From: Acidimicrobiia bacterium
GTDB taxonomy: Bacteria; Actinomycetota; Acidimicrobiia; Spongiisociales; ZC4RG35
Length of the DNA stretch: 64,000 nucleotides
Assembly: GCA_028285585.1 (NCBI GenBank)
Contig: JANQOU010000006.1
Coordinates: 593,881-657,880, forward strand
Reading direction: 5' to 3'
In this document: positions 1,950 through 63,772 of the stretch, in pieces
How positions within the stretch are numbered: position 1 is the stretch's first letter
Layout: each line of letters starts with the position of its first letter
Made by a program: the position numbers and the translations under genes
Notes under the pieces: generated by a model
Seen by the model: only the letters and a program-made list of their open reading frames with translations
Database searches by the model: none
Told to the model about the DNA's origin: nothing

Positions 1950-1950
1950 A

Positions 1951-2000
1951 GCTGAGGTGATTGTGACCGTATTTGGGCGTTATTACCTGAGGTTGCGGGT
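1951..2000. repeat. half-copy (solo terminal inverted repeat) of dispersed nested-palindrome element family (see 16349-16471)
   Basis: GACCGTATTTGGGCGTTATTACCTGAGGTTGCGG matches the reverse complement of the left TIR of the copies at 16349 and 46159. Confidence 0.5.
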
Positions 2001-2012
2001 GCGGGGGTTGTT

Positions 2013-11385: not shown

Positions 11386-11415
11386 CCCCCGACTCTAAGC
11401 CTCCCACCGACACCC

Positions 11416-11464
11416 GTTGCTATAGCAACGCGTGTCGCTCAGCGCGACGCCTTGCTATAGCAAC
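11416..11464. repeat. double-palindrome element copy A: GTTGCTATAGCAAC - GCGTGTCGCTCAGCGCGACGCC - TTGCTATAGCAAC, in the divergent intergenic region between the IMPase gene and lnt
   Basis: Two perfect 12-14 bp palindromes 36 bp apart flanking a stem-forming core; near-identical copy at 59702-59749. Confidence 0.6.
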
Positions 11465-11503
11465 GAGAGCCGGTCGGTTTCTACGCTGGCCGTTGTGAAA
11501 GCA

Positions 11504-14964: not shown

Positions 14965-16332
14965 GTGCTCATGGCTACCAAGATCATCCTGCCCGAGGCC
15001 GAGCTTCCGACGCACTGGTACAACATCGTCCCGGACCTCCCGTCGCCACCGCCGCCCGTCCTTCATCCGGGGACACACGAGCCGGTCGGTCCCGACGATC
15101 TCGCCCCGCTCTTCCCGATGGACCTGATCCTCCAGGAGGTTTCCACCGACAGCTACATCGAGATCCCAGAGGAGATCAGGGAGGTCTACCGGACTTGGCG
15201 GCCGTCGCCGCTCTATCGCGCCCACGGGCTCGAGAAGCTGATCGGCGGCCCTGCCCGGATCTACTACAAGTACGAAGGGGTCAGCCCGGTCGGATCCCAC
15301 AAGCCGAACACCGCCGTTGCCCAGGCCTACTACAACGCCAAGGCGGGGGTGAAGAAGCTGTCGACCGAGACGGGAGCGGGTCAGTGGGGCTCCGCCCTCG
15401 CTTTCGCCTGCTCGCTGTTCGGTATCGAGTGCGAGGTGTATCAGGTCAGGGCCTCGTATGACCAGAAGCCGTACCGAAAGGCTCTCATCGAGACCTTCGG
15501 CGCCACCATCCACCCGTCGCCCTCACCCAACACCAACTACGGCAGGGCAGTGTTGGAGTCGGATCCCGACACCCCTGGCAGCTTGGGCATCGCCATCTCC
15601 GAGGCGGTCGAGGTGGCCGCTACCAACGAAGATGTGAAGTACTCGCTGGGCTCGGTGCTGAGCCATGTGCTGATGCACCAGACCGTCATAGGTGAAGAGG
15701 CCCTGAAGCAGCTCGCCATGGTCGACGAGAAGCCGGACGTGGTCATCGGCTGTGCCGGTGGTGGGTCGAACTTCGCTGGTCTGGCCTTCCCGTTCGTCCG
15801 CGAGAAGCTGGCCGGGACCATGGACCCGGTGATCCGTGCCGTCGAGCCGGCTGCGGCTCCCTCGCTCACCCGCGGCAGCTATCAGTTCGACTTCGGAGAC
15901 ACTGGGCAGATGACCCCGCTGGTCAAGATGCACACGCTGGGTCACCCGTTCGTGCCAGAGCCGATCCATGCCGGTGGCCTGCGCTATCACGGGATGGCAC
16001 CGCTGGTCTCACATCTTCAGGAGCTAGGGCTCATCGAGTCCAACTCGCTGCATCAGACCGAGACTTTCGCCAAGGCAGTCGACTTCGCCCAGGCCGAGGG
16101 CATCATCCCCGGTCCCGAGCCGACCCATGCCGTGGCCGAGGCCATGAACGAGGCCGAGCGGGCCAAGGAGGCGGGGGAGGAGAAGGTGGTCCTCTTCAAC
16201 CTGAGCGGTCACGGGCACTTCGACATGGCGGCCTATCAGGCCTACTTCGACGGGCATCTCGTGGACTACGAGCACCCGCAGCACCAGATCGACGAAGCCA
16301 TGCAAAAGGTCCCCGTCGTCGCCGGCGAGTAA
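14965..16332 (+). CDS. TrpB-like PLP-dependent enzyme (tryptophan synthase beta paralogue TrpB2)
   Basis: 455 aa; N-terminal [13 protein letters not shown] and GSHKPN PLP-lysine motif typical of TrpB2. Confidence 0.8.
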
Positions 16333-16348
16333 CCACCCCCCGCCACCA

Positions 16349-16471
16349 GCAACCTCAGGTAATACGGCCCAGATACGGGCCCTATAGCCTCAGCTTGAGA
16401 GACGCTCTCACGCGTCCCTTTCAACTGGAGGTCATAGGGCCCAGATACGGTCGCTATTACCTGAGGTTCGC
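16349..16471. repeat. full-length copy of a nested-palindrome dispersed element (about 123 bp; about 42-bp terminal inverted repeats CAACCTCAGGTAATACGGCCCAGATACGGGCCCTATAGCCTC, central palindrome GAGAGACGCTCTC); sits between two convergent gene ends
   Basis: Left end and reverse complement of right end align over about 42 bp; same TIRs at 46159-46272; half-copies at 1951-2000 and 63727-63772. Confidence 0.6.
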
Positions 16472-16473
16472 GG

Positions 16474-17283
16474 TTACTGGTTGTGGCAGTCGGGCTCGCC
16501 CGGGTGGAGGGGGCGGGCCACCAGCTTGAGGGGCTGGTCGGACGCCGGGTCGGGGTTGACCCACTGAGTCGCCTGTGAGGCGTCTGCGAAGACCTCCAGC
16601 ACCTCGGGCCCGTAGACCTGGCACTTCCAGTCGTTTGGGTAGGTCACCCATGCGTCGAGGTTGGTGTCCTCCAACGCCCAGTCCCGCACGTCTTCGAACT
16701 CGGCGTCGATGAACCCGATGCCGGCGACGACACGCACGCGTTCGCCTTCAAAAGGCTCCGCATCTCCGGATGCAGCGAGCCGGTCCAACTCCACGAGCAA
16801 CTCGGAGAATGCCTGGGTTGCCGGGTTTTCGCTCGGCTCGAGGCCCAGCGCATAGACCGAGTAGCTGTGCTCAACACCTCCGGCATCCCAATAGCGGACG
16901 ACTTCGGTGTTGGCGTCGGCGACGATCGACGCGAATGTGTCATCCACCTCGTCGTCCATCTCGGGCAACCCGATCTTGTCGACCAGCTCGAGCACTTGCT
17001 TCATCTGGTCGTCACTGATCCGTGTGACCAGGTAGTTGGGGAGCAGGGGGCCCGGGTAGATGGCGATGACCGGGCCTTCATGTATCAGGCGGCCGTCAGC
17101 CATGAGCGTGTAGCGAGGTCCCTGGCCGAGGATGAACTCCACCGGTGCGAAGCCCCCTTCGGAGGTGACCCGGAGCACCGGTGTGTCCCTGTCTTCCGGA
17201 AGCTGGGGCCCTCCGGCGTCGGCACCACAGGCTGTGATCAGAAGGGCGAGTGCCAGCGTCGCCCCGATTGCTTTAGTTCTCAT
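16474..17283 (-). CDS. lipoprotein of unknown function
   Basis: Signal peptide with lipobox LLITAC; acidic mature domain; no family recognised. Confidence 0.55.
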   Translation of the reverse strand: MRTKAIGATLALALLITACGADAGGPQLPEDRDTPVLRVTSEGGFAPVEFILGQGPRYTLMADGRLIHEGPVIAIYPGPLLPNYLVTRISDDQMKQVLELVDKIGLPEMDDEVDDTFASIVADANTEVVRYWDAGGVEHSYSVYALGLEPSENPATQAFSELLVELDRLAASGDAEPFEGERVRVVAGIGFIDAEFEDVRDWALEDTNLDAWVTYPNDWKCQVYGPEVLEVFADASQATQWVNPDPASDQPLKLVARPLHPGEPDCHNQ

Positions 17284-17336
17284 GCCACTCAGATGAGCAA
17301 TGGGGCTGAACGGTTCCTGTCTGATGAAATCAGATT

Positions 17337-17403
17337 GAGATCGATGCGATCGATCTCCGTGTCGTCTGACGGGAACGGATTGAGGTCGATGCGATCGACC
17401 TCG
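17337..17403. repeat. pair of 21-bp perfect palindromes GAGATCGATGCGATCGATCTC (17337-17357) and GAGGTCGATGCGATCGACCTC (17383-17403), each preceded by TCAGATTG
   Basis: Each is a 9-bp-arm perfect inverted repeat; the two differ by a compensatory A/T to G/C change that keeps pairing perfect. Confidence 0.5.
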
Positions 17404-44609: not shown

Positions 44610-46034
44610 GTGACCAAGACGGCTGCCGACGTCTTGTCCCTCGTCGCTGACGAGGGCTACGAGTTCGTCGACCTTCGCTTCTGCGACCTGCCCGGCCAGG
44701 TCCAGCACTTCACCGTTCCCGCCCGCCAACTGACCGAAGACTCCTTCGAGGAGGGCTTCGGCTTCGATGGATCTTCGATCCGCGGCTTCCAGGACATCCA
44801 GGAGTCGGACATGATCCTGATCCCCGATCCGGCCACCGCCGTGGACGATGTCTTCCGGGAGCGCAAGACGCTGATTCTGTACTGCTTCGTCAACGACCCG
44901 GTGACGGGCACCCCTTATGAGAAGGATCCGCGCTACATCGCCAAGAAGGCGGAGGACTACCTGGTCAGCACGGGTATCGCCGACACCTCCTACTGGGGCC
45001 CAGAGGCCGAGTTCTACATTTTCGATGACGTGCGCTTCGGCCAGGACCAAAACTCCGGGTTCTACTTCGTCGACTCGGTAGAGGGAGCTTGGAACTCCGG
45101 CGAGTTCGAGGACGGGGGCAACCTCGGCTACAAGCCCAGGTACAAGGAGGGTTACTTCCCGGTTCCCCCCACCGACCACTATCAAGATCTTCGGTCGGAG
45201 ATGACGGCGCGCCTCGAGGATGCCGGCATCGTGGTCGAGGTTCAGCACCACGAGGTGGGCACCGCAGGTCAGGCGGAGATCGATATCCGCTTCGACACGC
45301 TGCTGCGCACAGCAGACAACGTGACCCTGTTCAAGTACATCGTGAAGAACACGGCGTGGGAGCAGGGCAAGACGGTGACCTTCATGCCGAAGCCGATCTT
45401 CGAAGACAACGGCTCGGGCATGCACACCCACCAGTCGTTGTGGAAAGACGGCGAGACGTTGATGTTTGACGAGAGCGGCTATGCCGGCCTGTCCGACATC
45501 TCTCGCTGGTACATCGGCGGCATCCTCAAGCATGCGCGGGCGATCCTCGCCTTTGCCGCTCCGACGACGAACTCGTACCACCGGCTTGTGCCTGGGTTCG
45601 AGGCCCCGGTGAACCTCGTCTACTCGAGCCGCAACCGGTCGGCTGCCGTGCGAATCCCGCAGTACTCGCAGGCTCCGGCTGCGAAGCGTCTCGAGTTCAG
45701 GTGCCCTGACCCGGCAGCCAACCCGTACCTGGCGTTTGCGGCGATGCTGATGGCCGGCATCGACGGGATCCAGAACCGGATCGAGCCGCACGACCCGGTG
45801 GACAAGGACATCTACGACCTCCCGCCGGCGGAGTTGGAGGGCCTGCCATCGGTGCCCGGCTCACTCGACGAGGCGCTGGACGCGCTGGAAGAGGACCACG
45901 ACTTCCTGCTCCAGGGTGGTGTGTTCACAGAAGGGCTGATCGACGCCTGGCTCGCCTACAAGAGGGAGCATGAGGTCGACCCGGTCAGGCTTCGCCCCCA
46001 CCCGTACGAGTTCCACCTCTACTACGACATCTAG
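44610..46034 (+). CDS. glnA: glutamine synthetase type I
   Basis: 474 aa; FDGSSI, MPKP, and adenylylation-loop region; C-terminal YYDI. Confidence 0.9.
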
Positions 46035-46053: not shown

Positions 46054-46158
46054 CGTTGGGACCGGGCGGGTCCATGTGACCAGGTAGGAGCCTCCGGCAG
46101 GAGACCCCAACCCCTCGCTTGCGAGGCGCCCGGCCCCAACTGTGCCGCCTTCTCACCT

Positions 46159-46272
46159 GCAACCTCAGGTAATGCCGCCCAAATACGGGCCCTATAGCCT
46201 CCGGTTGGGAGAGCGCACGGCCAACTCGAGGCCATAGCTACCAGATACGGTCGCTATTACCTGAGGTTCGCT
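46159..46272. repeat. full-length copy of the nested-palindrome dispersed element (about 114 bp) between glnA and the toxin-antitoxin module
   Basis: TIRs CAACCTCAGGTAATGCCGCCCAAATACGGGCCCTATAGCCTC ... GAGGCCATAGCTACCAGATACGGTCGCTATTACCTGAGGTTCG; core diverged from the copy at 16349. Confidence 0.6.
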
Positions 46273-46301
46273 GTGGGGGGTTGTCAGGGGTCCTGTACGT
46301 C

Positions 46302-46335
46302 GTGTATGACAAGTCGTTATACTTTATGTATGACA
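46302..46335 (+). promoter_or_regulatory. two direct repeats TGTATGACA flanking a TATACT -10 box 7 nt upstream of the antitoxin ATG (leaderless-type promoter/operator of the TA module)
   Basis: repeats at 46302-46310 and 46327-46335; TATACT at 46318-46323. Confidence 0.45.
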
Positions 46336-46578
46336 CAACTGGTTGCGCGGGTGGACGATGAGTTCATCGAAGCCATAGATCGACTGATCGAGGAGGGGGT
46401 CGTGGCCTCTCGCTCAGATGCGGTGAGACAAGGTCTCGAGGTTCTGATCGATCGCGCCCGTAGACACCGCGTCGGCGATGCGATAGTTCTGGGCTATCAA
46501 GCCAGCCCGCAGACAGAACCAGAGTGGGGTTGGTCCGATGACGCGACAGCTCGGATGATTGGTGAAGAGCCTTGGTGA
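46330..46578 (+). CDS. ribbon-helix-helix (CopG/MazE-like) type II antitoxin
   Basis: 82 aa; MTQLVARVDDEFIEAIDRLIEEG RHH motif; stop overlaps toxin start. Confidence 0.65.
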   Translation: MTQLVARVDDEFIEAIDRLIEEGVVASRSDAVRQGLEVLIDRARRHRVGDAIVLGYQASPQTEPEWGWSDDATARMIGEEPW

Positions 46579-46883
46579 CGCCCGCTCAAGGTGAGATCTG
46601 GTGGGCCGAGGCTGAGGACAAGCGCCGTCCTGTCCTGGTGGTGAGTCGCAACGAAGTCATTCCGGTTCTGACTTGGATCATGGTGGCACCGCTCACGAGG
46701 ACCGTGCGCGGCATTCCCACTGAGATCGAGCTGGGTGCCGAGCACGGGCTCGGAGTCGAAAGTGCAGCCTCATTTGACAATCTTCAACCGATTCGCCGGA
46801 CGTTTCTGACGGAGAGAGTTGGTTCTCTGCCTTCGGCCAGACAGAGCATCTGTCGCGCTTTGGGGGCTCTGGCCGACTGCTAG
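46572..46883 (+). CDS. MazF/PemK/Kid-family type II toxin endoribonuclease
   Basis: 103 aa; PAQGEIWWAEAEDKRRPVLVVS ... VAPLT pattern of the CcdB/MazF fold; TTG/GTG start overlapping the antitoxin stop. Confidence 0.65.
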   Translation: MVTPAQGEIWWAEAEDKRRPVLVVSRNEVIPVLTWIMVAPLTRTVRGIPTEIELGAEHGLGVESAASFDNLQPIRRTFLTERVGSLPSARQSICRALGALADC

Positions 46884-46901
46884 GGGGCTCCGACTGAGGG
46901 G

Positions 46902-47510
46902 TTAGGCGGAGGCGTTGGCTTGGGCGGCGTTGTTGGCGTTGGCAACTTCGGTCTGGAAGTCGGCGACGGCCCGGCTGTAGGCGTCCACAGCCCCGCGGCG
47001 AAGCTCGCCGGTGTCGGTGGAGCGCAGCCCGTTCAGCGCATCTCCGGCCGCCAAGGTGGCGAATTGCATCGCCGTCTTCATCGTTTCCTGGTTGACCTCG
47101 AGACCCACCGGCACCACCAATGCGTCCAATGCGTCGGACAACGCTTGAGTCTCGGTCTGGACAGCGTCCAGACGGGACTCAGTGTCTCCGTACTCGATCG
47201 TCCTCGGGTCGGCGTCAAACCCGTCGTTGACAGTCACCATCTCCACCCCGAGCAGCTGGAGATCGTTGTTGAGCGAGTCGACCGCATCGAGATAGGCCTG
47301 GGTGTCAGGATCGAGTGCGGTCGGCCCGGGGTCGGTTGTCTCGGTGGCGACCGTCGTCGATGTGGTGGTGACTTGCCCGGCCAGCGTCGAATCCGGTGAC
47401 GCCTCGGGCAATTCGCGCACGAAGAAGTAGGTGAAAGCGATCATCCCCAAGATGACGAGGGGAAGTATCCACCGTCCCGGCTTGGGGTCTGGGTTGACTG
47501 CCATGTCCAT
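46902..47510 (-). CDS. membrane-anchored hypothetical protein (N-terminal TM, Thr-rich linker, helical acidic domain)
   Basis: 202-aa ORF; hydrophobic WILPLVILGMIAFTYFFV; no family recognised. Confidence 0.45.
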   Translation of the reverse strand: MDMAVNPDPKPGRWILPLVILGMIAFTYFFVRELPEASPDSTLAGQVTTTSTTVATETTDPGPTALDPDTQAYLDAVDSLNNDLQLLGVEMVTVNDGFDADPRTIEYGDTESRLDAVQTETQALSDALDALVVPVGLEVNQETMKTAMQFATLAAGDALNGLRSTDTGELRRGAVDAYSRAVADFQTEVANANNAAQANASA

Positions 47511-59635: not shown

Positions 59636-59701
59636 CGTCGCGAGGTTAGAACCTGACTTGGCGATGTTTGCCGTGCACAGCGTCGCGCTGACCGCGACCC
59701 C

Positions 59702-59749
59702 TTGCTATAGCAACCCGTGTCGCTCAGCGCGACGGGTTGCTATAGCAAG
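59702..59749. repeat. double-palindrome element copy B: TTGCTATAGCAAC - CCGTGTCGCTCAGCGCGACGGG - TTGCTATAGCAAG, about 65-115 bp upstream of argS and just downstream of the E1 gene
   Basis: same architecture as 11416-11464 with compensatory GCGT/ACGC to CCGT/ACGG change in the core stem. Confidence 0.6.
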
Positions 59750-59758
59750 GAGGGTCGG

Positions 59759-61780
59759 TCAGTACTTGGCCAGCTCGAGGGCTCGCTCGACGATCGACTC
59801 GGGTGTCGGGTAGAGGGCGTGCTCCAGCGAGCCCGCGTATGGCATCAGGGGAACGTCGGGCAGCCCGTACCTCTTGACCGGGGCGTCGAGCCATTCGAAG
59901 GTCTTGTCGGCGATCTGAGCGGCGATCTCCGCGCCGTACCCGACGAACTCGTTGTCCTCGTGGAGCACGAGCGCCCGGGACGTCTTCTTGACTGAGCGCT
60001 CGATGGTCGGCCAGTCCAGCGGCTTCAGGGAACGGAGGTCGATGACCTCCGGGCTGACACCCAGCTCTTCGAGGATGGGCACCGCTTCCATGGCGAAGTG
60101 GGCCATCGCCCCGTAGGCGACGATGGTCAGGTCATCACCCAGATGGCGAAGGGCAGCCTTGCCCAGCGGCACTCGGTGCTCACCGTCCGGGAAGGGCCCC
60201 TTTGCCAACCGGTAGAGTTTCTTCGGTTCGATGAACAGCACCGGGTCGGGATCTTCGACCGCGGTGTGCAGCAGGCCTTTGACGTCGGCAGGGGTCGACG
60301 GGATCACAACCTTCAGCCCTGGGACGTGGGCGTAGAAGGCTTCTATCGATTGCGAGTGGTACTGAGCACCATGTATCCCGGCCCCGTAGGGGGTGCGTAT
60401 GACGATGGGGCAGTTCCAGCGCCCGTCGCTGCGATAGCTGATCCTCGCCGCTTCGGAGACGATCTGGTCGAAGGCGGGGTGGATGTAATCGGCGAACTGA
60501 ATCTCGGGGATCACCTTGTATCCCGTCGCCGCCATCCCAATGGCACAGCCGATGATGGACGACTCGGCGATGGGTGTGTTGAAGCATCTCTTCGACCCGA
60601 ATCGCTCGGTCAGGTCTTGGGTTGCTTTGAAGACGCCACCCTTGCGCCGGGCGACGTCTTCACCGAACACCACGGTGTCGTCGTGCGCCTCCATCACCTC
60701 ATGGAGTGATCGGTTGATCGCCGTGATGAGGTTCACCCTCTCCCCGGCCGGAACCGGCTCCGGGGTAGTGGATGCCTCGCCGACCTCGATCAGCCGCGCA
60801 TATACATGTGAGGTGGGCTCGTCGGGGTCGGGTGACGTCTCGGCGGCTTCCACTGCTTTGGCCAGCGTCGCCACGACTTCTTCGTCGAGGTCGGTCTCCT
60901 GTTTCTCGGTGAGCAGCCGCTGCTCGATCAGGTACTGGCGCAGCTTCGCCAGCGGGTCTCTCTTGCGCCAGGTCTCGACCTCTTCCTGGGTTCGGTAGAG
61001 GGTGTCGTTGTCGTCAGAGGTGTGGGCGTAGTAGCGATAGGTCTCGGCCTCGATGAGCGTTGGGCCTTCACCCGATCGTGCCCGGCGCACCGCCGTTTGC
61101 ATCGTTTCCAGGACCTCGAAGGGGTCGTTGCCGTCGATGAGATGGCCGGGGAAGCCGTAGCCCTGCGCCCGGTCGGAGATTTGGCCAGCAACTCCTTCAC
61201 TCGTCGGGACCGAGATGGCGTACTGGTTGTTCTCGATGACGAAGATGAGGGGCAGGTCGTGAATGCCGGCCCAGTTCATCGCCTCGTGCCAGTCGCCTTC
61301 CGAAGTGGCCCCTTCTCCGCCGTAGACGACGGTCACGGCGTCGGTCTCACCGAATTTGAGGCCGTGGGCGATGCCGGCGGCGTGTGGGAACTGGGTGCCG
61401 ATGACGGAGGACTGAGTGAACACTCGGCGGTCGGGGTCTGACCAGTGGCTGGGCAGCTGGCGGCCCCCCGACATCGGATCTTCCTTCTTGGCGAACACCC
61501 CCAGGAAGATCTCTCTCGGGTCGAACCCCCAGGCCAAGGCAACACCCATGTCGCGGTAGTAGGGGAGAAGCCAGTCCTTGTCTCTGTCCAAGGCGAACAC
61601 AGAAGCAACCTGAATCGCCTCGTGTCCAGACGCCCCGAGCACGAACGCGGCGCGGCCTTGCCGCTGGAGCGCCCACATCCTGTCGTCGACTCGGCGGGCC
61701 ATCAGCATCAGCCGGTACATCTCGACGACTTCGGTGTCGTCCAGCCCTAGGCGGCGGTGATCTGGGGTCTGCTCGAGCAT
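59759..61780 (-). CDS. 2-oxoacid dehydrogenase E1 component, fused alpha-beta subunits (TPP-dependent)
   Basis: 673 aa; N-terminal alpha half with TPP-binding GDG-x(n)-NN region (YGGEGATSEGDWHEAMNWA...IENNQYAIS), C-terminal beta/transketolase-like half. Confidence 0.85.
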   Translation of the reverse strand: MLEQTPDHRRLGLDDTEVVEMYRLMLMARRVDDRMWALQRQGRAAFVLGASGHEAIQVASVFALDRDKDWLLPYYRDMGVALAWGFDPREIFLGVFAKKEDPMSGGRQLPSHWSDPDRRVFTQSSVIGTQFPHAAGIAHGLKFGETDAVTVVYGGEGATSEGDWHEAMNWAGIHDLPLIFVIENNQYAISVPTSEGVAGQISDRAQGYGFPGHLIDGNDPFEVLETMQTAVRRARSGEGPTLIEAETYRYYAHTSDDNDTLYRTQEEVETWRKRDPLAKLRQYLIEQRLLTEKQETDLDEEVVATLAKAVEAAETSPDPDEPTSHVYARLIEVGEASTTPEPVPAGERVNLITAINRSLHEVMEAHDDTVVFGEDVARRKGGVFKATQDLTERFGSKRCFNTPIAESSIIGCAIGMAATGYKVIPEIQFADYIHPAFDQIVSEAARISYRSDGRWNCPIVIRTPYGAGIHGAQYHSQSIEAFYAHVPGLKVVIPSTPADVKGLLHTAVEDPDPVLFIEPKKLYRLAKGPFPDGEHRVPLGKAALRHLGDDLTIVAYGAMAHFAMEAVPILEELGVSPEVIDLRSLKPLDWPTIERSVKKTSRALVLHEDNEFVGYGAEIAAQIADKTFEWLDAPVKRYGLPDVPLMPYAGSLEHALYPTPESIVERALELAKY

Positions 61781-62926: not shown

Positions 62927-63712
62927 TTGCGTCTGGGCGACGCATTCTGGGAGGTGTGCAAGGATGACGCGATGACCAAGGCCGCGTTCATGAGGGTTTA
63001 CGCCCCCGAGGTGGACGGCTCGGATGAGCCGGTGCCCGGTTTCGTCAGGACCTATGGCCTGTTGTCGGAAGCCGAGGGAGACTCGGCTTGGACCGTCGAA
63101 TGGGAAGGACGTCGGCTGGTTTGCCCGAGAAACCTCAGGCTGAGGGTCTTGGAGTCCACCGTCGCCTTTGCCAACGCTTTTCAAGGCCTGGGGGGAGTCG
63201 GGCTGGTGCCCGAAGAGGCGGCGAGGGCCGCCGACACCGAGCTGCGCGCCTATCACCGGGCTCATCCGGAGCATCGCTCTCATGTGCTCACTTCGGCCTG
63301 GCATGTCCCGGTCCGTTGGTTCACGGCCTTCGAGTCGGGGCAGAAGCAGATCTATGAGACGTCGGACGGGATGCGAATCCGCTTTCGCTCCGACATCGAT
63401 GCCTCGCGTCGCAAGGTGGCGCGTGCCTACGACATCCTGGACAAGCTGGACGTGTTCCCCGGGCCGACGGAGGAGCTGGGCCAGCTCGGCGAGTGGCTCG
63501 ACCCCTTCCCGTCGGGCTCCATGGTCGAGCTGGACTATGGGGAGGTGTCCGACCTGTTCGACAGCGACGAGTTGGTGTTCGACGACTCGTGTGAGCTGAT
63601 CCAGGAGTCGCTCGACGCTCTCGAGAACGGTGACCTGCTCAAGGCCGGCGAGAACTACGGCCGGGTTGTCACCCGCTGGGCCCGCGCCTATTCCGTCACC
63701 TTCTCCAATTAA
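62927..63712 (+). CDS. hypothetical protein (alternative start MTKAAFMRVY at 62972)
   Basis: 261-aa ORF, acidic, no recognised family. Confidence 0.45.
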   Translation: MRLGDAFWEVCKDDAMTKAAFMRVYAPEVDGSDEPVPGFVRTYGLLSEAEGDSAWTVEWEGRRLVCPRNLRLRVLESTVAFANAFQGLGGVGLVPEEAARAADTELRAYHRAHPEHRSHVLTSAWHVPVRWFTAFESGQKQIYETSDGMRIRFRSDIDASRRKVARAYDILDKLDVFPGPTEELGQLGEWLDPFPSGSMVELDYGEVSDLFDSDELVFDDSCELIQESLDALENGDLLKAGENYGRVVTRWARAYSVTFSN

Positions 63713-63726
63713 CCCCCCAACCGCGT

Positions 63727-63772
63727 ACCTCAGGTAATACCGCCCGTATCTGGGCCCTATAACCTCAGGAAC
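63727..63772. repeat. half-copy of the nested-palindrome dispersed element (left TIR only)
   Basis: TACCTCAGGTAATACCGCCCGTATCTGGGCCCTATAACCTCAGG matches the left TIR of the copies at 16349 and 46159. Confidence 0.5.

Follow-up and report, generated by a model that had tools for sequence, protein, structure and literature searches.

The stretch of DNA analysed here (the window) comprises 64,000 nucleotides of contig JANQOU010000006.1 from an Acidimicrobiia bacterium (assembly GCA_028285585.1). Its G+C content is 63.5%, its proteins match those of Acidimicrobiia metagenome-assembled genomes (MAGs), and Pfam together with synteny tables assigned only housekeeping functions to its genes. Between these genes lies the subject of this report, a family of nested-palindromic repeats: six homologous arms were found at four intergenic loci, arranged as two inverted doublets (copies 1 and 2) and two single arms (arms 3 and 4). 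An earlier note on the same DNA, made from the letters alone, had described a dispersed and strictly intergenic family with four loci, and all of these were recovered in the window sequence where the note had placed them. Each arm, the basic unit of the family, measures about 55-65 nt and contains a hairpin made up of a GC stem, an ARATAC loop and a second GC stem. Hereafter, ACCTCAGGTAAT serves as the sequence label for the arm type, and W, G and E denote the subtypes of the window, of GCA_964195405.1 and of L044, respectively.

The 13-mer TATTACCTGAGGT, with up to two mismatches allowed, matched six times in the window, exactly at the six predicted arm ends, against 0.28 matches expected, and none of 100 shuffles reached six matches. 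The same arms made up the largest direct and inverted families in a repeat search of the window, and an nhmmer arm profile recovered all six at E = 1e-15 to 1e-18 without finding a further arm locus in the window. Furthermore, the self-complementary box ACCTNAGGT occurs seven times versus 0.7 expected, with six of the seven inside arms, and the sub-hairpin GGCCC-ARATAC-GGGCC is present in the arms, which bears out the two kinds of sub-palindrome proposed in the earlier note. The window holds eleven C6/G6 runs, of which three serve as leaders of the element, and all six CTATAG sites belong either to the arms (family 1) or to a second palindrome family (family 2).

Read from its outer to its inner end, an arm consists of (TA)ACCCCCC, 1-3 nt, ACCGCGA, ACCTCAGG, TAATA, sCGmCC, a six-base loop, GGGCCC, TATAG and CCTCAG. 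Arms of 47-53 nt are mutually 73-92% complementary and constitute terminal inverted repeats. Whole window arms are 61-88% identical to the reference copy, and the identity of the arm core is 75-100%. In the arm alignment, 24 of 43 columns are invariant, and strong conservation is also seen in the two AT-rich spacers, TAATA and TATAG.

Copy 1 is a doublet of 141 nt (16333..16473) that extends from the TAA of a TrpB-like gene (16330-16332) to the TAA of a convergent 269-aa gene (TTA at 16474-16476). Its 'a' arm (16333..16394, plus strand) starts with the leader CCACCCCCCGCCACCAGCA, followed by the box ACCTCAGGT (16352-16360) and TAATA, and continues inward with the sub-hairpin CGGCCC-AGATAC-GGGCCC (16365-16382), TATAG and the inner box CCTCAGC. 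The centre (16395..16421), whose sequence differs between copies, holds the small palindrome GAGAG-ACG-CTCTC. The 'b' arm (16422..16473, minus strand) reads, outer to inner, ACCGCGA, ACCTCAGGT (16459-16467), TAATA, GCGACC-GTATCT-GGGCCC, TATG and ACCTCCAG; on the plus strand its loop is AGATAC, like that of the 'a' arm. With arms that reach about 15-20 nt further out through an ACCCCCC run and ACCGCGA, the element exceeds the roughly 120 bp given in the earlier note. Copy 2 (46152..46283), also a doublet, carries its boxes at 46162-46170 (left) and 46259-46267 (right) and the right terminal GGGGGGTTG at 46275-46283; it starts 117 nt past the stop of glnA (gene end at 46034) and immediately precedes an RHH/PemK toxin-antitoxin pair (46273-46883). 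The single arm 3 (63 nt; 1950..2012, minus strand) occupies the whole gap between the TGA of a PAC2-family gene (TCA at 2013-2015), which its outer end faces, and the ATG of a 123-aa gene (CAT at 1947-1949). The single arm 4 (63713..63769, plus strand) reads CCCCCCA-ACCGCGT-ACCTCAGG-TAATA-CCGCCC-GTATCT-GGGCCC-TATA-ACCTCAGG; it follows directly after the TAA (63710-63712) of a 261-aa gene, whose ortholog in L050 is annotated as DUF8083, with lysA starting about 77 nt downstream of the arm.

In every arm examined, those of other genomes included, the outer end is directed at the stop codon of whichever gene reads into the arm, and copy 1 as well as the doublet of a second genome, L004, run from stop to stop between convergent genes. 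The copies had previously been placed partly 'at gene starts'; while their intergenic position stands, it is better described as immediately behind the stop codon of the preceding gene. The window genes end in TGA (33), TAG (13) or TAA (6), and TAA accounts for three of the four stops that directly touch an arm (p ~0.0035, hypergeometric calculated by hand from the window counts).

The loop is always ARATAC or its complement, and in all three doublets (copy 1, copy 2 and L004) both loops read the same on one strand, so that the sub-hairpins of a doublet are direct repeats within an otherwise inverted structure. The element is thus not the simple inverted repeat that had been described. We do not count this shared orientation as a sign of selection, because its chance probability in three of three doublets is 1/8 and a common master is likely; the arm cores of copy 1 and L004 are 93-100% identical, and the orientation was probably inherited from one master copy.

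The conserved arm sequence could also be explained by duplex-DNA sites for a host protein, either nucleoid-associated or a regulator, that reads ACCTNAGGT and GGCCC-N6-GGGCC and co-evolves with them in each lineage. Self-complementary boxes and invariant columns with fixed TAATA and TATAG spacers would be expected of such sites; a loop kept as ARATAC or its complement either way round fits duplex reading, and each lineage has its own variant. However, the arms are located at gene 3' ends rather than at promoters, and their flanking genes (TrpB-like, lipoprotein, glnA, PAC2, DUF8083/lysA) form no obvious regulon. Moreover, a concerted change of many sites and their protein would be hard to achieve without replicative turnover, and no candidate protein was found. 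We regard this explanation as very unlikely.

Occurrence in other genomes and at orthologous sites

The pattern ATNNGGNCNNNATTACCTGAGGT, which fits all six window arms, was used to scan one genome per species (185,579 species), JGI metagenomes and IMG/VR. The scans returned one true relative, L004 (Acidimicrobiia MAG IP29b_bin.45), and the other 34 matches were chance hits in unrelated contigs, nearly all of lower GC. Because this pattern is tied to the window subtype and passed over subtypes G and E, the family is under-counted. BLASTN against plasmids gave no match. The doublet of L004 (676-809) is of the window type and fills the whole interval between two TAA stops; its neighbours, a 209-aa and a 310-aa gene, lack counterparts in the window, and the site is thus non-orthologous. 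Orthologous loci were obtained via the flanking proteins, and arms were found in four other lineages in total: L004; L043/L048/L036; GCA_964195405.1; and L044.

The 3' junction of the trpB-like gene provides the one case of a filled versus an empty orthologous site. In L043 (97% protein identity), the flanks, the leader and the outer stems are kept, but the site holds only AACCTCAGG-CATTA-CCTGAGGTT, a 27-nt form that lacks the inner ~98 nt. GCA_964195405.1 and the matching metagenome contigs (L037-42; 92%) carry a diverged arm, and L056 (91%) has an unrelated hairpin. In L044-46 (90%) the site is empty, and the two stop codons overlap as GGCTAACC. At the PAC2 junction, arm 3 is kept in place with two substitutions in L048 (Peptidase_M3 96% identical), and in L049 (81%) PAC2 is followed by an ordinary GC hairpin, and its neighbouring gene is a different one. 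The DUF8083/lysA junction of GCA_964195405.1 holds a diverged arm right after the stop; at this junction, L050 and L053 show a G-type arm. At the glnA 3' junction, GCA_964195405.1 has a 70-nt diverged G-type copy that runs from the glnA stop to the convergent stop, without a toxin-antitoxin pair. L044 possesses its own E subtype, AACCTCAGG-TAGTT-GGGCCCC-GTATAC-GTGGGCC, and the junction that it occupies has another flanking gene in the window. The G subtype contains CGTAGTAGC, whose resemblance to GTAG/CTAC may be a coincidence.

All three comparable window sites are occupied in GCA_964195405.1 (84-92% protein identity), which allowed copies within and between genomes to be compared over a 28-nt core. 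The window arms are mutually 83% identical (90% without the loop) and the three GCA_964195405.1 arms 88% identical (91% without the loop), and the three orthologous pairs between the two genomes reach only 68-75%. The diagnostic changes CAGG->CAGC, TAATA->TACTA and GCGACC->CGACCC recur at all three sites. Because independent decay at each site cannot yield shared changes, the copies appear to have been homogenised or replaced within a genome; paralogs that are closer than orthologs point to turnover or homogenisation within each genome.

The placement of the arms is also reflected in the proteins next to them. The C-terminus of the TrpB-like protein (window 16318-16332) reads ...VVAGE* in the window, ...AVTPE* in L043 and ...VVTGV* in GCA_964195405.1, all of which carry the element, and ...VVAG*, one residue shorter, in lineages without it (L044, L056). 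These lengths fit a replacement of the original stop of the gene by the element. In L044 (21056-21109), a called open reading frame (ORF) of the Oxidored_FMN (old-yellow-enzyme) type reads about 14 codons into an E-subtype arm and ends at a TTA on its inner side; the original C-terminus may have been replaced by the element, or the gene call may be too long. Both cases matter for annotation, as arms supply TAA stops and a called ORF in L044 runs into an arm.

At the outer end of copy 2, the RHH antitoxin and PemK/MazF toxin genes lie between this copy and a 202-aa gene (46273-46901). The pair looks inserted there, because the ortholog in GCA_964195405.1 abuts the element without it; in L050, the ortholog of the 202-aa gene directly abuts the G-type arm. 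On the far side of the pair, directly after the TAA of the 202-aa gene (46902-47510), lies a possible arm-terminal remnant (46884..46901, minus strand), GGGGCTCCGACTGAGGGG followed by TTA. This is a fourth TAA, followed by CCCCTCAG, perhaps a remnant; the arm-terminal-like string is CTGAGGGGTTA (46891-46901, then stop). With a match of only ~10 nt, the assignment of the GGGGCTCCGACTGAGGGG string as a remnant is weak. The string may mean that the arm terminal has been duplicated or split. Upstream of the antitoxin gene there are also a direct repeat GTATGACA(A/C) and a TATACT box resembling a -10 element.

Two Logan short-read contigs from run SRR20820731, L036 (2139-2181) and L047 (9432-9472), whose proteins are 100% identical to those of the window, stop in the loop region of arms 1L and 3. 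These breaks hint indirectly at longer identical arm segments elsewhere in the same genome. As Logan contigs of this organism end in arms or in the second palindrome family, short-read assemblies seem to break at the repeats, and MAG collections probably under-represent them.

Folding and transcript ends

Copy 1 is predicted to fold into a long hairpin (RNA -74.3 kcal/mol, z = -10.4; DNA z = -6.5) and copy 2 into a three-branched structure (RNA z = -3.9; DNA z = -2.6), both more stable than their shuffles, in agreement with the long hairpin or multi-stem fold anticipated in the earlier note. The L004 doublet behaves similarly (DNA z = -4.2). Arm 4 also folds well (RNA -23.6 kcal/mol, z = -3.4; z = -3.4 and -3.0 for the two strands). 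Arm 3 barely folds (z = -0.75 and +0.27; sense strand -5.8 kcal/mol, z = +0.27) and, judged by these predictions, looks decayed.

Folds as stable as those of copy 1 and of arm 4, on both of its strands, would also be expected if the copies were structured-RNA genes or cis-elements, such as a small RNA, a riboswitch-like leader or an RNase target, and an RNA role had indeed been suggested for them. Other results do not support it. The arm hairpin is 86.5% paired across nine arms, and its alignment gave no covariation above shuffles, 358 of 500 shuffles being at least as good. No Rfam family matched over the whole window at gathering score or over copy 1 at E <= 1; the earlier note had likewise assigned the repeat to no described family. 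Both strands fold about equally, as palindromic DNA would, the single arms and the G-type copies fold poorly, and no sigma-70-like promoter overlaps the copies in either scanned region. Taken together, an RNA identity of the copies appears extremely improbable.

A further question is whether the hairpins act on the transcripts of the genes that they follow. No T-tract terminator overlapped any copy in our scans, the sequence after the arms being GC-rich, and hairpin-plus-T-tract terminators were no commoner than chance in the window. In a dedicated host 3'-end module, the arm hairpin would end or stabilise the transcript of the gene reading in, and a doublet would serve as a bidirectional terminator or insulator; the likeness between copies would come from a common host factor, and their spread from duplication or gene conversion without transposition. 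Such a module would explain why arm outer ends always face the stop of the gene reading in, and why doublets are confined to convergent gene pairs and single arms to co-directional ones. It would also be in keeping with three junctions that stay occupied across lineages of 84-92% protein identity. The other hairpins at the same junctions (in L056, and after PAC2 in L049) suggest that a hairpin is wanted there, and chance-level T-tract terminators would call for some other terminator type. On the other hand, no copy is followed by a T tract, and arm 3 on its sense strand and the GCA_964195405.1 copies (z ~0, no better than shuffled sequence) are conserved yet unfolded. The lack of covariation speaks against the module as well, and the conserved loop and AT-rich spacers would be superfluous in a plain terminator hairpin. 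Furthermore, L044 does with overlapping stops and no hairpin at all, and copy 2, at its distance of 117 nt from the glnA stop, is not flush with it. We consider a dedicated module of this kind, the chief competitor of the favoured reading, possible but unlikely.

Comparison with known repeat systems and favoured reading

Repeats of the repetitive extragenic palindromic (REP) and REPIN type are well studied in Proteobacteria, and REPINs with their RAYT transposases are known from Pseudomonas, Enterobacteria and Neisseria; full-text literature searches found no description of REPs, RAYTs or such palindromic repeats in Actinobacteria or Acidimicrobiia. Group 2 REP hairpins carry a GTAG/CTAC tetranucleotide at their foot, a motif absent from the window-type arm alignment. 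The present arm is also longer and nested, with two self-complementary boxes around an inner hairpin, it has a C-run leader and abuts stop codons, and its host belongs to an actinobacterial class. In addition, the flanked RAYT (Y1 transposase) gene that defines REPINs was not found in the 64 kb and flanks examined, out of an assembly whose longest recorded contig spans 689 kb.

Despite these differences, the likeness to REPINs is considerable. Both consist of short palindromic extragenic units, mostly inverted doublets around a variable spacer that form a long hairpin (PMC3116915), and both persist vertically over long times, with lineage-specific types in the same extragenic spaces (10.1101/2021.07.10.451892; 10.1101/2024.10.14.618302). 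REPINs have been described as populations of old sequences that are inherited vertically and have a master sequence (10.1101/2021.07.10.451892), and they 'may be overwritten' in conserved extragenic spaces as the cognate system changes (10.1101/2024.10.14.618302). Their unit is the doublet, and singlets are decayed doublets (PMC3116915); here arm 3 folds poorly but arm 4 is well preserved, and only two singlets are available for this comparison. With miniature inverted-repeat transposable elements (MITEs), the family shares the terminal inverted repeats and one filled/empty site; a clear target-site duplication was not seen, neither the window nor the fetched loci contained a parent insertion sequence, and there was no recent burst. 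As a RAYT, a GTAG foot, a clear target-site duplication, a parent insertion sequence and a burst were all not found, we describe the family as REPIN-like or MITE-like in the way it works, without assigning it to either group.

Three further systems were compared. Correia elements (CREE/NEMIS) of Neisseria are intergenic, about 100-150 bp long, with terminal inverted repeats, TA at both ends and no transposase of their own; they exist in long and internally deleted short forms, lie near gene ends, can form hairpins in transcripts and occur in hundreds of near-identical copies. The present family resembles them in size, inverted repeats, TA ends, deleted forms, non-autonomy and placement at gene ends, but its sequence and host are unrelated, its copies are far less alike, and no evidence of integration host factor (IHF) sites or promoters was found here. 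ERIC/IRU sequences are old, imperfect palindromes of about 127 bp in transcribed intergenic regions of enterobacteria, with internal deletion and insertion variants; their sequence and phylum are different, and they are not known to have the stop-flush placement or the box-hairpin-box arm. In IS608 of the IS200/IS605 family, the left- and right-end hairpins are presented on one strand to a single-strand-specific HUH transposase. By analogy, both hairpins of a doublet show the ARATAC loop on the same strand, but the ends enclose no TnpA gene, the element is otherwise an inverted repeat, and with only three doublets, probably from one master, the loop orientation may be plain inheritance.

Several other candidates were tried and rejected. 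The core sites R''/R' of integron attC sites follow the consensus RYYYAAC ... GTTRRRY; the ends found here, GCAACCT ... GGTTCGC or GGTTGCA, do not fit GTTRRRY, the flanks are housekeeping genes in conserved order, and there is no integrase. A link to restriction sites was dismissed, CCTNAGG (21 versus 16 expected) and GGGCCC (25 versus 36 expected) not being unusual in the window. The lineage 'dialects' prompted the idea of DNA-uptake sequences in inverted pairs; the unit is far longer and more structured than a 10-12-nt signal.

Overall, we hold it somewhat more likely than not that the copies belong to an old, non-autonomous family of palindromic repeats with slow turnover, which is found in a clade of uncultured Acidimicrobiia and works like REPINs or Correia-type MITEs. 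By its sequence comparisons, the family appears old and slow, and closer to REPINs than to a MITE burst. The copying form would most likely be the doublet, two inverted arms around a short variable centre, which could extrude as a long hairpin or cruciform, and single arms would be decayed or truncated halves of doublets. In a compact genome, copies would survive only exactly after stop codons, where nothing is broken, and the element ends (TA-ACC...GGT-TA) would give TAA on both strands, supplying or restoring a stop. A doublet could thereby fit between convergent genes whose stops otherwise overlap, as they do in L044, and leave both proteins unaltered. Overwriting in each lineage might occur by re-insertion through a trans-acting enzyme encoded outside the window or by gene conversion, and would leave the conserved sites with a 'master' sequence particular to the lineage. 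At the 3' ends of genes, the hairpin may additionally end or stabilise transcripts; such a secondary role is plausible, because element-free lineages often have another hairpin at the same spot.

A number of observations weigh against this reading. As the earlier note had stated for the window, no transposase was found there, nor any RAYT, and the same holds next to the copies in the fetched loci (Pfam scans of 40 window ORFs; synteny and gene tables for the rest). No unambiguous target-site duplication was detected: TA flanks both sides of copy 1 and of the L004 doublet but not of copy 2, and because TA is self-complementary, such flanks are indistinguishable from the ends of the inverted repeat. 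The window copies differ from one another by 10-25%, which is a difficulty if recent movement is assumed, and no two copies are near-identical over their full length, hence no sign of recent movement. The empty-site lineage is only ~90% identical in protein, and the nucleotide boundaries of the insertion are therefore not fixable. The ATNNGGNCNNNATTACCTGAGGT scans yielded a single relative, although with a pattern bound to one subtype. The GCA_964195405.1 copies show no folding beyond that of shuffled sequence, and the hairpin may already have been lost in this lineage. Finally, a conserved host function could explain equally well why two lineages have copies at the same three junctions. Density and architecture had originally been taken to indicate a mobile family; dispersal, as seen in L004, and the filled/empty site support this part, but recent activity is thereby overstated, given the sites shared at 84-92% protein identity and the divergence of the copies.

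The fixed sites, lineage-specific types, clean empty site and internal-deletion allele of this family offer a tractable test case. With their help one can study how long-lived repeats are maintained and homogenised in compact GC-rich genomes, and whether an enzyme moves them and which one. Should the arms also end transcripts, they would represent a terminator type without a T tract in this group. A more specific version, to which we give little credence, is a REPIN-like replicator in Actinobacteria that is kept by a non-RAYT enzyme, the candidate being a single-strand-specific or hairpin-specific recombinase reading the two identical ARATAC-loop hairpins on one strand. Its ends would rebuild TAA stops and so allow it to lie exactly between overlapping convergent genes, and newer copies would overwrite older ones, giving rise to lineage-specific master sequences at fixed sites; if true, this would mean that the long-lived lifestyle of a 'vertically inherited mobile repeat' arose a second time, independently.

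Other palindromes and neighbouring features

A second and unrelated nested-palindrome family is present at 11403-11478 and 59688-59763 of the window. In each copy, the 14-bp palindrome GTTGCTATAGCAAC, in one case with a mismatch, stands on both sides of the hairpin GCGTGTCGC-TCA-GCGCGACGC, with outer stems ACCGAC/GGTCGGT, and the DNA folds have z = -5.9 and -9.0. Relatives have no copy at these sites: in L049, 21 nt separate Inositol_P and LNT, and in L050 an unrelated hairpin lies between argS and the E1 dehydrogenase gene. The centre of this palindrome is also where two Logan contigs, L047 and L048, begin.

Between the 269-aa lipoprotein-like gene and an aminotransferase gene, a unit of about 39 nt is repeated twice in tandem (17319-17402; z = -3.4), and each copy contains a perfect hairpin, GAGATCGAT-GCG-ATCGATCTC or GAGGTCGAT-GCG-ATCGACCTC. 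Outside the window, an rve-family (Mu-like or IS481-like) transposase gene is located beside an extracytoplasmic function (ECF) sigma-factor gene in L045 (19830-21266); it is present in this one of the two long-read assemblies of the 90% relative and missing from the other (L044).

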